From an uncultured Nitrososphaeraceae archaeon (GTDB lineage Archaea; Thermoproteota; Nitrososphaeria; Nitrososphaerales; Nitrososphaeraceae), in assembly GCA_963837175.1 (NCBI GenBank), contig CAWIMJ010000057.1, forward strand, positions 32,001 to 96,000: DNA of 64,000 nt, given 5' to 3'. Below the pieces are notes generated by a model. That model had not been told where the DNA came from and did no database searches. It worked only from the letters and a program-made list of their open reading frames with translations. Positions 9,739 through 60,453 of the stretch are shown in pieces; within the stretch, counting starts at the first letter, position 1, and every line of letters starts with the position of its first letter. A program made the position numbers and the translations under genes.

Positions 9739-10467
9739 AGTAAGAACAGTATGGAATATGAGATTTAATAGTTATATAGACTGAGTACAAATAAAACGGT
9801 AGTAGTACAGTTAGAAGGCTTTGTTGAATTATCTATATTACTATTACTATTACTATTAAAATTCTATATGGTTTAATTAATCGATAGTAAGGAGAAATTA
9901 GGCTGAAGTCGAAAATACAATTCACGTAAGTGATTTTCTCTTGATTTAGTAGCACTAGCAGATAACGATGACGACCTATTTCTGACATTTTGATAAAAGG
10001 ATTACATGTATTACAAGTTTCTATTATTGCTAACTTAGATAAAGCTGATGAGGATAGCAAGGTATTTTCCTTTCCCGTCTTTTCCATCTGTTGTGGTTAT
10101 TAATATTTTAAGGTTGCAATCAGAGACTTTTTCATTCTCATTGGAGTAGTTTCATGAATTTCTGATGCTCTTTTAGAAAACCAATTATTAAGAATTCAAT
10201 TTATCACTCCAACCCCATGAATTTTATATTATTGAAAGGGGATAAAATGATATTATGTGCTTTTAAAAGTATAGCTCAGAAATATATATAAAACTCCAAA
10301 ATTTAACAAAAGATTGCAAAAAACTCTATAAATATAGATGAATGTCCATGTCAAAAAGAGGATTATGTGGATATAATATACTCAGTAATTTTTTGCAGAT
10401 TCTTCATAACAATGAGTAATAAAATCAATAACCAAGCCATTAATAATGGATGCTAAGATGATATCCT

Positions 10468-11034: not shown

Positions 11035-12424
11035 TTAGTGAGAGATATAATCTGAAAGTTTGATGTTCTCTTCACCAGGAATCTTTGCAATCTCAAATCT
11101 CTCTCTTGGTTTGATAAGAGTGGCAGTAGCATCGATTCCTACTTTCGTTGTTAGCAAATTTTCCTGATCACTTGATGGGTCGAGACTTGATCCTTTAGCA
11201 TTGGTGATTATTAACAACCCTTTATCCGCCTGACATCGGGTAGACATTGCATATTCTACAGAAACAGGGCTGGTTGGATCGATATCGTCGTCTACCACAA
11301 TCGCCATCTTCAGTGAAGGATGAGCCGCAAAAGCTGCTAACAAAGCATTTTTTGGCTCGCCTTCTAGACGTTTTTTAATCTGTATTACTGCATCAAGCCA
11401 GTTGCTTCCACCATCCGTGAGATGTACTGTCTTTGTAGATGGAACGACGTTCTTTATTACCTCAAACATCTTTGATTCAACTGGCAATCCCATCAATAGA
11501 CGATGTTCTGCATATCCTGGTAATATATCGTAAAAAATTGCATCATTTCTATATCTTATTCTGTCGAGCTCAAAAACAGGCTGTTTACGTTTAAAATCAT
11601 AAGTTCTAAGCATTTCTACCATCCATTCCTCTTCAGTTCTATCCTTGAGAATTTTGCCCTCAAGAACAATTTCAGAATGGGTGGGAACATATAGTCCAGA
11701 GAAATTACTTATACTCAATGTAAGATCATTTCGAAGTAATGAATTCGCAATTAACATTTCATCAATACCATATGCCGCCTGATAGGCTGCAGCTATACTA
11801 ACCGCCGGATGTACTCCAACTACGATTGCAACTTTTAGATCTTCCCCATGCTCCTTTGCGAATGAATAACACTTGTGTAGATGCCTGCCTTCTACCATTC
11901 TAATCGCCATGTGTTTTTTATCGAGTAGCAACAGTCGATGTGTGGAGGAATTCTGGTTATCTTTTTCTTGGTCCTTAGCAAAAACTATTGAGGAAGTAAT
12001 AAAGGCACCTGCGTCTTTCTCAAAGTGAGTAATCACCGGCAGATCTTTCAAATCAGTAGAAGAATTCTCATAGAAAGGAGCATCAGAGGAGACTTTTCTT
12101 GGCGGAGATGCCTTTGCAATTGATTGAATAATATGAGTATGGATTGAATTTTCGTCAATAGCTCCAATGGCAAGGGCAAATCTTTTCCTTGTTCCTAGAA
12201 CATTGGATGCTACATATATCCTGCTATCTTCCACATTTTCAAATAATGCTGCCTTGTTTTCTTTCAAGCTTGCTTACAAGCGCTGCAATCTCAAACTTTG
12301 TGCTCACAGTTTTGTTTATTCTTATTAGATCGTTTTCTTTCTCCAACACATTCAAAAAACTTCGAAAATCATTGTTTTTCTTAAATACTCTCTTTTCGTT
12401 GCTTCCTTCTATCGCCGTTTTCAT
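11035..12424 (-). CDS. UbiD-family prFMN decarboxylase (likely anhydromevalonate phosphate decarboxylase); split by a +1 frameshift near 12255
   Basis: N-terminal DFRSFLNVLEKENDL...FEIAA in ORF 12239-12424 joins ORF 11035-12267 (EIVLEG, VVDDDID, GSSLDPS, KVGIDAT); pathway role from knowledge of the archaeal modified mevalonate pathway. Confidence 0.85.
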
Positions 12425-18053: not shown

Positions 18054-19184
18054 TCTGATAATAATAATAATAATACAGAATTTAATTCAAAGACTTGCTT
18101 CTTAGCTACCTATCCTTTAGAGGAGGTAACAAAAGAAGCTATTTCTCTAGCAGACGCAGCTGGATATTCTATTATTAAAATAGTAAACCAGCGTAATCTT
18201 ACACAGTCAAAATATGGAATCGGTAGTGGGAAAGCAGAAGAAGTAAAGGAATTAGTTGAGCAATTAAAACCAGGAGTAATTATTTTTGATGAGGTGCTAA
18301 AGCCAAGTCAACAATATAATTTAGCAAAAGTCTGTAAAATAGACATACTAGATAGAGAGCGCTTAATTCTAGATATCTTTGAATTAAGAGCAAGCACTGC
18401 GGAATCAAGAATTCAGATTAAACTTGCACAGTTACGATATGACATGGTTAGAGCTCGAGAAAAAGTTAGACTCGCAAGAGCAGGAGAACAGCCAGGATTT
18501 TTTGGTATGGGAAAATATGATGCTGATGTCTATTTTCTAGATATCAAGAAACGATCCGCTATCTTGAAGAAGAAGTTGGAAAGAGAAGAGAAGAGAAGAG
18601 AACTTTTTCGGATTCAACGATCAAGAGCAGGTTTGCCTACCATTTCTATTGCTGGCTATACTTCTGCAGGAAAGACGACTCTATTCAATACTTTAACAGG
18701 AGAATCAAAAATGGAAGGAAAAGAGGTATTTACTACTCTATCTACCTTTACTCGAGCAATTAATTTGAAAAATGATAAGAAGCTGTTAATTTCAGATACT
18801 GTCGGATTTATCAGCAAGCTTCCAGCTTATATGATCGATGCATTTAAATCAACACTTCAGGATATAACTTATTCTGATCTTGTTTTGCTTGTAGTTGACA
18901 TTAGCCAGTCTATAGAAGAGATTAAGAAGAAATTAGACAGTTCCATACATATATTATTAATTAGAAGCTTTAAAGTTCTTTACTTGTTCAAGAGGACATA
19001 TATGAAAAATTTCTATCATGAAGTTTATACGTTGGTTCATATTGGGATGCTATCTTTACCACAACAGCAGATTTTGTTAATTGCGCTAAAGACAGGTTTT
19101 AACATAGAACAGTCAAACGACTTTATGTCATTACTTGTCGTTCCTAAGGTTGATAAGATAAAAACAGAAGAGTTGCTTTATTGA
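18054..19184 (+). CDS. hflX: GTPase HflX (start codon unresolved, C-terminal G4/G5 degenerate)
   Basis: Frame open from 18054 (FLATYP...YGIGSGKAEE); DRERLILDIF, AGYTSAGKTT (G1), FTTL, DTVGFI (G3). Confidence 0.85.
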   Translation, partial: SDNNNNNTEFNSKTCFLATYPLEEVTKEAISLADAAGYSIIKIVNQRNLTQSKYGIGSGKAEEVKELVEQLKPGVIIFDEVLKPSQQYNLAKVCKIDILDRERLILDIFELRASTAESRIQIKLAQLRYDMVRAREKVRLARAGEQPGFFGMGKYDADVYFLDIKKRSAILKKKLEREEKRRELFRIQRSRAGLPTISIAGYTSAGKTTLFNTLTGESKMEGKEVFTTLSTFTRAINLKNDKKLLISDTVGFISKLPAYMIDAFKSTLQDITYSDLVLLVVDISQSIEEIKKKLDSSIHILLIRSFKVLYLFKRTYMKNFYHEVYTLVHIGMLSLPQQQILLIALKTGFNIEQSNDFMSLLVVPKVDKIKTEELLY

Positions 19185-57741: not shown

Positions 57742-58293
57742 ATGTCGGGTATCGGAGCATCAAGAACTGTTGCTATTGATGTAGATTCTGTTTTAGCTGA
57801 TGTCATATCCATATGGACACATGAGTATAATAAACGCAGGCACACCAGAATTACTAAAAGAGAAATTATAGCTTGGGATATTACCAAAATTCTACCTATT
57901 AGTCCAGATGATATATATCGACTTTTTAGTTATATATGGAAATATCGCTGGAAAGAAATCCCTCCCACTGAGCCTCAAATAGGAGAGATCACGCGAAAAA
58001 TTCATTGTAAAGGTTATAGGATCTCCATTCTGACAAAGAGAGAAAGGCCAACAGTAGCATATGTTGCAAAATGGCTTGACTTTCATGATATTTATTCTGA
58101 TGATTTGCTATTCGTTTATGATGCTACACCTAAAGCTGAATATCCATTTGATATTCTAATAGATGATGCTCCAAAAAACCTGTTAGATATAGCTCCCCCA
58201 AAGTCTGCAATCTTATTCAATCAACCATGGAACAGAGATTTTGACTGGCCAGTAAGAGTAACTTCATTGAGTGATGCAGAAAAAATGCTCTAA
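57742..58293 (+). CDS. HAD-superfamily 5'(3')-deoxyribonucleotidase (NT5C-like)
   Basis: AIDVDSVLAD motif I, ILTKR, K.EYPFDILIDD, FNQPWN. Confidence 0.85.
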   Translation: MSGIGASRTVAIDVDSVLADVISIWTHEYNKRRHTRITKREIIAWDITKILPISPDDIYRLFSYIWKYRWKEIPPTEPQIGEITRKIHCKGYRISILTKRERPTVAYVAKWLDFHDIYSDDLLFVYDATPKAEYPFDILIDDAPKNLLDIAPPKSAILFNQPWNRDFDWPVRVTSLSDAEKML

Positions 58294-58804
58294 ATAAGGC
58301 CGAATAGACTTTGAAAATGCAAAAGCAAGTTTGCTGTCAACTATCTGTATCGACTCACAATAACTGGCTGTGGATAACCTTTGCGAATAGAAGTTAGACA
58401 TTTCCTAATTAATTGAATTTATCCCAAATTGAAATGTCACTGATTGGTATATAAATTTAAAGCGGAATGCGACAAAAAAACAAATCTATAACTTATACTG
58501 CTAAACTTTATTATTTCTATTATTTTTGGTTTACTTCTCTATTTTATAAATCCAGAAACGTTTAGTAATCAAGAATTTAAAAATAATTAAGTTTAGTTTT
58601 CAAATGCTACATTAACCACGACAATGAGTTATCTATTATTATTTATCCAAGTAAATGGACAGGTAGATCGATATATTCAACTAGAAAAGGGTTATTAAAT
58701 AAATTTGTCACAGATGTATATGCATTGGATAATTGATAGCTATAAAATCTCACTCATGTTACCTGATATTTGATGCCTTTGGGAATGTCCATCCATGGTT
58801 TACT

Positions 58805-58946
58805 AATTAGCCGAGTAAAACTAGTCTCTAACGTCAAGATTAACGTTTTAAAGGATACTTCATATCCTAAAATCCTAAATCTGGCTAGGATCTAAAATTC
58901 GCCACGGCTGTTTCATTGCCGTAGTTATGAGACTAGTTTTCTAACT
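58805..58946 (-). ncRNA. Candidate structured non-coding RNA (multi-branch: closing stem plus four hairpins)
   Basis: Perfect 12-bp arms 58817-28/58929-40 enclose four 7-8-bp hairpins; six A/C oppositions on + strand become G-U pairs on - strand; no ORF. Confidence 0.6.
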
Positions 58947-59075
58947 GAGGCCTCCATCTTGTCAATTTATACTGATAAGGTGCGTGTATTTCTTATAATC
59001 CTCATCTACCTTTTGACCAATTACTAAGTATGCGAAGTACTGATTCGATTCGACTAACCATTGCTTCTTTTTTAA

Positions 59076-60453
59076 TCATTTAACGTAATCTAAAAATCTT
59101 ACCCACTCGGGGAACCAGAGGTCATTTTCTGAAACACCTATACCACGTGCGAGTATTGCAGGCGAATTATAGTACACGGCATCTGCTTTGATGTCCTTTT
59201 TCAATGAATTGTTTAGACCGTCTATTGATGAAACTTTCCCGATATACTTATTTGCAATTAATTCCCTATTTTGCGTATAAAGACCAACCTGACGGCCATC
59301 TACTGTTGGAACATAACATACTATAACATAGATGTGGCTTACGCCAGCTTGACGTAAATAATGGATTGTCTCTTTGACTGTGCCTCCAGTTTGAATGGTA
59401 CCCTGGATGGTCGCTATTTTCCTGTTCTGAACAAGATTGTTTATTACAAATTTTAGCGATTTACCAGTTGTGAGTAATTTATTTTTGCTAATCTGTTCTG
59501 AAAAGTCAATCATATGATCAGAATCGTCATATCTATCTTTAATTATGCCCTCAGAAGCCTCAAAAGTTTTGGAATATTTTTGATACTCTGTGCTAAAGCC
59601 TAAAGTCATTGGACGAGTATAATCAGGTTCAGCATATGCTGAATCAAGCGCTATATCATTTGCTAGAAAATTAGCCTGTTCTTTTCCAATATTTTTTCTA
59701 ATGGCGTAAATACTTTTCCCATTGACTATTGCTGTAACATGAGATTCTCGGATAAATTCAAAGGGATCCATCATCACTCGATCTTTTGAGAGATGAGCAA
59801 GAAGTTCCAATCCATTTCTCTTACTCAATTTTAATAACTGACCAGGCTCTACATCATTAAAATGCATATTAATCAAAGATGTCCTTAATGAATTTTCCGA
59901 TGCGATAATTCTCAAAGTCTTGGAATTATTGGTAGCACTTACAAGTGGCTTGAAACCACTGCTATTTCTATAAGCATAGATATCATCATGCAATTTTAAA
60001 ATCATGTTCCCTTTCAAATGCCTATCTAAGAACTCTGCTGCCTCGTTCTGGATTTTGTTTTTTGATTAATAAATCTACAAATATGTAATATATCTTAAAA
60101 AGAGAATCTGATTCCTTGCCTTGTCCAATATTAGGATGCAAGTGTAACTTTTCAGTATCTACAAGGAAGCCATCAAGTAATACCTGTATTACCTTCATAC
60201 TAGGAAATTGCGGCGGTCTCTTAGAAAGGTATCCTATTCCATTATCACCACGTAATTTTTCATTCTCAACAATTTTCAAAATGGTATCGTCTTGGGGAAG
60301 TGATCCTTCTCTTTCGGCTACTATATTTCCTATAGCCATTTTCCAGTATGCTTTACCTCTATGCTGAAGCATTCGCATTGAGTGTGCAAGGTAATAGATT
60401 GCGTCCTTGGACGCGTCTGCACCAAGATTGTAAACAGCGACAATTCCAGCCAA
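59076..60453 (-). CDS. PurF (amidophosphoribosyltransferase)-like paralog with degenerate catalytic motifs; split by +1 frameshift near 60045
   Basis: MAGIVAV, LQHRG, YRNSSGFKPL, IASEN, DVEPGQ, FEFI...NGKSIY..RKNIG, GIIKDRY follow PurF order; two ORFs join by removing one base. Confidence 0.75.

Follow-up and report, generated by a model that had tools for sequence, protein, structure and literature searches.

The segment encompassing positions 58805 to 58946 of the 64,000-nt stretch of archaeal DNA analyzed in this work (referred to as the window) forms a rare multi-hairpin fold, which is present in a single copy, is restricted to one species, and is located in a lineage-specific insert between a PurF-like gene and a convergent nucleotidase gene. 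The explanation which we favour, at a probability of roughly 0.4, is that this element represents a young, species-restricted module of nested palindromes, residing in an inserted or expanded spacer and being transcribed within the 3' tail of the purF-like mRNA. It is not a conserved new class of RNA, but at best an RNA element of very recent origin or what remains of an insertion of DNA.

Architecture and genome-wide rank of the fold

The element has a length of 142 bases and consists, on the minus strand, of an outer 6-bp stem, a 6-nt bulge, a 12-bp closing stem and four hairpins, which together constitute a five-way junction. The perfect closing stem is formed by a left arm, AAAACTAGTCTC (58817-58828), which on the minus strand supplies the UUUU that ends the fold, and a right arm, GAGACTAGTTTT (58929-58940), the two being retrieved by a repeat search as 12-nt sequences that are 100% complementary and located 100 nt apart. 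Between these arms, RNA folding of the minus strand places a hairpin with a 7-bp stem and a 4-nt loop (58830-58847), a second with a 7-bp stem and a 3-nt loop (58852-58868), a third with a 9-bp stem (58870-58893) and a fourth with a 7-bp stem and a 9-nt loop (58902-58924). The four palindromes are all unlike one another, and A4 and T4 flank the closing stem in both directions. Arms, hairpins and outer stem had been proposed in a preliminary description of this DNA, and the repeat search and RNA folding recovered them with the same coordinates, sequences and topology.

The minus-strand RNA (58800-58950) folds with a minimum free energy (MFE) of -48.7 kcal/mol into the closing stem and the four hairpins, and its centroid structure possesses the same topology. 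This fold is well defined (MFE frequency of 0.05) and has a z-score of -5.59, with none of 200 dinucleotide shuffles being equally stable; the corresponding values for the plus-strand RNA are -39.8 kcal/mol and a z-score of -4.13. In a local fold scan, the element represents the top minus-strand fold of the window (z-score of -6.44), and the four-hairpin fold is real and exceptional. Other strong folds in the window, with z-scores from -4.5 to -5.5, are located at 10140-10299 and 18089-18147 on the minus strand, and at 2644-2794 and 11315-11365 on the plus strand.

The nested palindromes are reminiscent of rolling-circle single-strand origins and of hairpinned termini, and this, together with the location of the element in acquired DNA, brings into consideration a site acting at the DNA level, where an integrated replicon could have its single-stranded DNA origin or undergo recombination, or where several palindromic operators could be grouped. 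Against this, the two strands of the element when folded as single-stranded DNA are alike and diffuse (-21.3 and -20.5 kcal/mol, with an MFE frequency of at most 0.0006), no replication or recombination gene is present near the element, its neighbours being housekeeping genes, and no related mobile element was retrieved. The four palindromes, differing as they do from one another, do not point to one common binding protein, and we consider a DNA-level site to be barely plausible.

The standing of the fold within the genome was assessed by means of a scan based on windowed MFE and z-scores of all ORF-free DNA (2148 regions, corresponding to 1,625,258 nt, on both strands), which identified 603 distinct loci with a z-score of -4.5 or lower. 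Among these loci the element (z-score of -6.44) ranks 21st, while it ranks 2nd among the 26 loci that contain at least four hairpins, its fold thus being in the top few percent of a genome that is rich in strongly folded, mostly repeated spacer DNA. That there are as many as 603 such loci, and that approximately 130 perfect 12-bp inverted repeats with this spacing would be expected per genome from composition (a rough estimate), is in favour of inverted repeats having come together by mere chance in an AT-rich spacer. The outcome of the shuffling, the two ranks, and the fact that the space between the perfect arms is filled exactly by four additional hairpins argue against such a chance origin, which we therefore deem highly improbable.

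Of the 20 loci outranking the element, 12 occur more than once in the genome, the highest copy number being 29. Strongly folded spacer repeats of this genome include C34:92299-92448 (29 copies), C8:90889-91027 (22 copies), C36:26181-26236 (15 copies) and C56:59349-59435 (12 copies), and the genome thus seems to be heavily colonised by small palindromic repeats. Two further loci, C57:230448-230582 and C22:34485-34619, carry identical folds of 135 nt. Archaeal SSU and LSU rRNA were identified with Rfam on the contig of the window itself, which shows the organism to be an archaeon, and because the C57 copy is situated between these two rRNA genes, the 135-nt fold presumably corresponds to a processing stem of the rRNA spacer; its occurrence at two loci suggests either two copies of the rRNA operon or a duplicated contig end.

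A search of the window against Rfam 15 at the gathering threshold returned no match, and the more permissive E-value mode (E of up to 10) returned only three chance matches with E-values from 0.6 to 6.6. The best of the permissive matches for the element is to mcrA, with 14.3 bits as compared to a threshold of 57.6 (E-value of 0.6), and ARAGORN detected no tRNA or tmRNA in the element, both searches thereby agreeing with the earlier reading, in which it resembled neither a tRNA nor several other well-known RNAs. When the loci outranking the element were searched in the same manner, none of the 19 short ones tested produced an Rfam match at the gathering score, the remaining one being located in an rRNA spacer. 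Considering the 603 comparably folded loci and these 19 negative results, the missing Rfam match of the element carries little weight. This outcome is of corrective value, as a striking fold lacking an Rfam match is, in this genome, no evidence for a new class of RNA.

A species-only insert and the search for copies

The element is located 129 nt downstream of the stop codon (59076) of a divergent PurF-like gene on the minus strand (59076-60453; TIGR01134 purF, E-value of 1.7e-15, with a score of 57 bits where the cut-off is 350), for which no Pfam family match was obtained. On its other side lies a convergent plus-strand gene specifying an NT5C-type 5' nucleotidase (57742-58293; Pfam PF06941, E-value of 5.4e-17), and nothing co-oriented with the element is present between the two. 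The arrangement that had been described, with the element downstream of and co-oriented with the PurF-like gene at a distance of approximately 130 nt and convergent with the nucleotidase gene, is thus correct. The purF-like/NT5C gene pair is syntenic in relatives, and a PurF-like ortholog is present in all 24 family genomes sampled, nearly all of which also possess a second paralog with approximately 30% identity.

The spacer between the aligned gene blocks measures approximately 731-761 bp in this genome (734 bp in the alignment with L043), as opposed to 257, 257, 355, 369 and 372 bp in five genomes of the same genus. Alignment with these syntenic purF-like/NT5C spacers revealed that a segment of approximately 430 bp that holds the element (approximately 58612 to 59043, the boundaries being approximate) has no counterpart in any of the five. 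Furthermore, the best 150-nt fold in the syntenic spacers of 10 relatives has a z-score between -0.5 and -2.8, as compared to -6.45 here, and no fold comparable to that of the element is present in any of these 10 spacers.

This restriction was also observed outside of the syntenic spacer. The element was not found by sequence searches in 40 relatives, nor by a covariance model in 100 family genomes, where a single match had an E-value of 0.54, while the same model did retrieve the element from its own genome; this model was built from a single sequence aligned to itself and is therefore without covariation information. The insert, searched as a 531-nt sequence against 237 family genomes, produced only chance matches of 22-41 nt in four of them, and was not found elsewhere in its own genome. 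The element is carried by a metagenome contig of the same species, L075 (98.5% identity across 7.4 kb), and its other carriers are soil DNA sequencing runs, 14 of which contain at least half of the sampled words, while runs with at least part of the stretch derive from 12 studies.

The preliminary description had proposed that a single syntenic copy across relatives, exhibiting covariation, would indicate a non-coding RNA. As no copy is present in the relatives searched, this expectation is not borne out and, there being no homolog in any of them, neither conservation nor covariation is demonstrable.

A location within a species-only insert, combined with perfect 12-bp terminal inverted repeats, is also what would be expected if the element were a neutral relic of inserted or mobile DNA (a solo MITE-like element or the end of a hairpin-rich element), with the RNA fold being a by-product. 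This explanation gains from the abundance of repeated palindromes in the genome, as illustrated by the multi-copy nature of most loci that outrank the element, and from the occurrence in the same genome of a true MITE family of approximately 140 bp with a similar fold. The latter family, present at no fewer than five loci (C15:7972-8111, C35:7253-7392, C16:45371-45510, C13:3155-3294 and C50:104064-104203), is characterized by inverted ends of 16-18 bp (TGCTTTGTTGCAT...), clean 8-bp target-site duplications, and a fold in which an outer stem encloses hairpins, its multi-hairpin interiors being variable. The element resembles members of this family in that it is non-coding, approximately 125-145 bp long, bounded by perfect terminal inverted repeats, composed of an outer stem around small hairpins, and located in a spacer position that is unoccupied in relatives. 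It differs from them in being single-copy, in lacking a target-site duplication, in having arms that are shared with no other locus, and in that the indel boundaries do not coincide with these arms.

These differences are based on several observations. Sequence searches of the element's own genome return the element alone, in agreement with the absence of a target-site duplication that had been remarked upon earlier and in disagreement with the dispersed copies that had been proposed as the sign of a MITE. The 12-nt arm word, allowing up to one mismatch, occurs 21 times in the genome as compared to 31 times for a control word, while arm pairs with up to two mismatches in each arm occur 30 times as compared to 42 times in the control, so that both are at chance level. 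No target-site duplication is present at the 12-bp arms, whose flanks AGCCGAGT and CTAACTGA have nothing in common, nor at the outer stem, whose flanks TGGTTTACT and GAGGCCTCC likewise have nothing in common. Finally, the breakpoints between presence and absence (approximately 58612 and 59043) are far wider apart than the 124-142 bp of the element. A classical MITE was consequently rejected, despite the terminal inverted repeats.

The longest ORF of the insert specifies 41 amino acids, and none of the 23 six-frame peptides of at least 15 amino acids had a tblastn match elsewhere in the genome, there thus being no coding remnants; in addition, the insert of approximately 430 bp has neither terminal repeats nor a target duplication. 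Two candidate insertion marks, namely a direct repeat at 58490-58504 and 58964-58978 (D1; 13 of 15 positions identical) and a TGGTTA repeat located close to either edge of the indel, were rejected because relatives possess part of the sequence that separates these repeats from the edges. No donor of the element or the insert was retrieved from phage and plasmid collections, from viral contigs (searched with three patterns) or from reference genome contigs (searched with two patterns), which speaks against a neutral relic, as do the single copy, the chance-level arms, the lack of a target-site duplication and the indel boundaries. On balance, we regard such a relic as a serious contender, albeit at less than even odds.

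A scan of metagenomes with the arm pattern yielded five loci, where about two would be expected from composition (a rough estimate), and only one of these, L075, represents the same locus. The others were rejected as relatives and are judged to share a 12-nt inverted repeat by chance. L073 is a long, GC-rich hairpin, while L074:320-442, L076:4957-5079 and L077:1334-1456 belong to an unrelated repeat of approximately 123-194 nt from one metagenome which possesses the same 12-nt inverted arms and an unrelated interior; L077 contains no ORF of more than 117 amino acids in the 5 kb examined. Apart from a published survey of mobile elements integrated into Thaumarchaeota (PMC6563490), the literature searches retrieved no work on structured RNAs or MITEs of this lineage, which is not to claim that none is in print.

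Strand asymmetry and variation between strains

The fold contains four internal non-Watson-Crick oppositions (58806/58945, 58835/58842, 58871/58892 and 58903/58923), each of which is an A/C opposition on the plus strand and thus a G·U pair on the minus strand, the odds of four out of four being about 0.025 (a rough estimate). It had been claimed that there are six such oppositions, all favouring the minus strand. This holds for the four internal ones, while the other two (58858/58862 and 58878/58885) merely close loops, and the plus strand can itself gain G·T pairs at helix ends (58901/58925 and 58808/58947). The accompanying argument that this asymmetry reflects selection on an RNA is likewise sustained only insofar as the internal wobbles are concerned, since the strands differ in folding energy by 8.4 kcal/mol, a gap ranking just 200th among the 603 structured loci. 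That the two strands fold alike and diffusely as single-stranded DNA likewise counts against this argument. Such an ordinary gap is uninformative with regard to RNA selection and is compatible with a neutral relic.

Comparison with L075 revealed differences at three of the 142 positions of the element, i.e. 58811 in the bulge, 58897 in a linker and 58916 in a loop, none of which is paired in the fold. For the adjoining insert DNA the count is 15 of 361 positions, the lower divergence of the element not being significant, while coding regions differ by 0.3-1.2%.

A contig from a soil DNA run, X1, covers 58000-59105 (1106 nt) and exhibits only three differences from the window, all of which are inside the element. 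Two of these, 58824 G>A and 58873 T>C, convert Watson-Crick pairs into minus-strand G·U pairs, while the third, a 1-nt deletion at 58864, shortens the hairpin at 58852-58868 from 7 bp to 4 bp. The X1 variant refolds to the same topology at -45.9 kcal/mol, and because L075 agrees with the window at the three sites, the X1 states are probably derived. The odds of three differences (58824, 58864 and 58873) clustering within 50 nt are about 0.002 (a rough estimate), and this cluster could represent a hairpin mutation hotspot, relaxed constraint or a contig artefact.

Taken over both strains, five out of five substitutions fit the minus-strand fold, with odds of about 0.05 (a rough estimate), one deletion damages it, and no double compensatory change was observed among the three haplotypes. 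The clustering of the X1 changes in the element, one of them breaking a stem, is in line with a neutral relic, against which the agreement of all four internal wobbles and all five substitutions with minus-strand pairing has to be set. Taken together, these observations lend modest support to pairing of the minus strand as RNA, and are suggestive rather than decisive.

Transcriptional context, possible role and known counterparts

According to our favoured explanation, approximately 430 bp would have entered or expanded the purF-like/NT5C spacer after the species split from its relatives in the genus, and RNA polymerase leaving the purF-like gene would then read the element into the 3' tail of the mRNA. 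No minus-strand run of four or more T's separates the element from the stop codon of the purF-like gene (correspondingly, no plus-strand A4 run at 58947-59075), and the first minus-strand T4 run encountered after the stop codon is that which specifies the UUUU ending the closing stem (58820-58817). Beyond it are a minus-strand T5 run at 58583-58579 and a T7 run (58474-58480, minus strand), the latter being located beyond the insert and aligned to T4-T5 runs in the same-genus spacers, and likely marking the ancestral end of the purF-like transcript. Since no T4 run precedes the element, and since a T-run conserved in the genus is situated beyond the insert, purF-like transcription should run into the element. 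Transcription of the element, the strand concerned and any function that it may have are inferred.

On the minus-strand RNA, the element would form a five-way junction, closed by a stem that terminates in UUUU. Its most likely role would be that of a 3'-end structure blocking 3'-to-5' decay. Alternatively, it may help to stop transcription before collision with that of the convergent NT5C gene; however, archaeal termination is not known to require hairpins, and T4 is a weak termination signal, both of which count against a terminator role. The element may equally have no role yet and, as relatives manage without it, any role would be dispensable.

RNA contigs from three metatranscriptomes provide none that lies on the element, and the neighbouring genes are covered only 2-4x by contigs that are without strand information; at such coverage, the lack of a contig on the element says little either way. 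RNA contigs are present on the body of the purF-like gene (59161-59547), and the 8-13% of words shared with RNA sequencing runs trace to the neighbouring genes and not to the element.

The main proposal of the preliminary description was an independent gene for a small non-coding RNA with its own promoter, acting in trans or as a sensor. The sequence TATAAAT is indeed present on the minus strand at the position given (58971-58965), suitably spaced at approximately 20-25 nt upstream of the fold, and this putative promoter, the strong and well-defined fold without an Rfam match, and the pattern of wobbles and variants fitting the minus strand all suit such a gene. This same site is, however, the most variable spot between the two strains, with four differences to L075 in the 14 nt around the TATA-like box, the L075 version still being AT-rich. 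In addition, no homolog exists in any relative searched, no RNA contig lies on the element (which is weak evidence given the coverage of its neighbours), and the absence of an Rfam match is uninformative for the reason set out above. Nothing was found that ties the element to purine or PRPP sensing, and the nucleotide-sensing role that had been suggested is thus without support; the element is also situated 3', and not 5', of the PurF-like gene and so does not occupy the position of a riboswitch. An independent small RNA gene is, in our assessment, distinctly improbable.

A related possibility is that of a newborn structured RNA under selection, in which the minus-strand five-way junction would serve as a species-specific small RNA or as a device in the 3' untranslated region of the PurF-like gene. 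Here, the host would be a soil archaeal species resembling ammonia oxidisers, the insert would be either foreign or the product of expansion, and the RNA would have been born de novo. We consider this scenario unlikely.

With respect to known systems, REP/BIME sequences and the Correia-type inserts of Neisseria are bacterial, highly repeated elements that can protect the 3' end of the upstream mRNA or terminate transcription. The element is similar to these in forming a stable palindromic structure that follows a gene and separates it from a convergent one, and differs in being single-copy and archaeal, so that any effect on mRNA would here be by analogy alone. The lysine riboswitch, as a five-way-junction RNA, shares with the element a closed junction of several helices and a length of about 140-180 nt; the latter, however, is positioned 3' of a gene, has no Rfam match and is not conserved outside one species. 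Lineage-specific orphan small RNAs of archaea and bacteria share with the element an intergenic location, a structured nature, a possible promoter of its own and restriction to one species, from which the element departs in that its putative TATA box is variable within the species and that it is known from DNA sequence. We regard the element as a single-species case of a familiar kind, be it that of structured spacer inserts with palindromes or that of candidate orphan RNAs; it falls outside described families, yet is without the marks of a new class, namely conservation, covariation, associated genes and a demonstrated transcript.

If the fold is used, the element would constitute a dated, single-species example of inserted palindromic DNA becoming a structured part of an archaeal transcript, few such cases being available in archaeal 3'-end biology. 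The lack of a homolog in the searched relatives and the unsupported link to nucleotide sensing add to the corrective value of the analysis.

Two minor observations concern the neighbouring genes. The PurF-like gene of the window is split into frames of 143 and 313 amino acids by a single additional C (GCC in place of GC) near 60041 (60018-60060). The L075 copy is an intact ORF of 458 amino acids and most orthologs in relatives are open over 456-490 amino acids, while a frame of 329 amino acids is also seen in G021; the split stems either from an error in the assembly or from recent pseudogene formation. For the NT5C gene, two RNA contigs from two metatranscriptome studies cover the 3' end (X15 at 58172-58393 and X16 at 58205-58405). 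They stop at 58393 and 58405, i.e. approximately 100-112 nt past the NT5C stop codon, and these contig ends may correspond to the 3' end of the NT5C mRNA.
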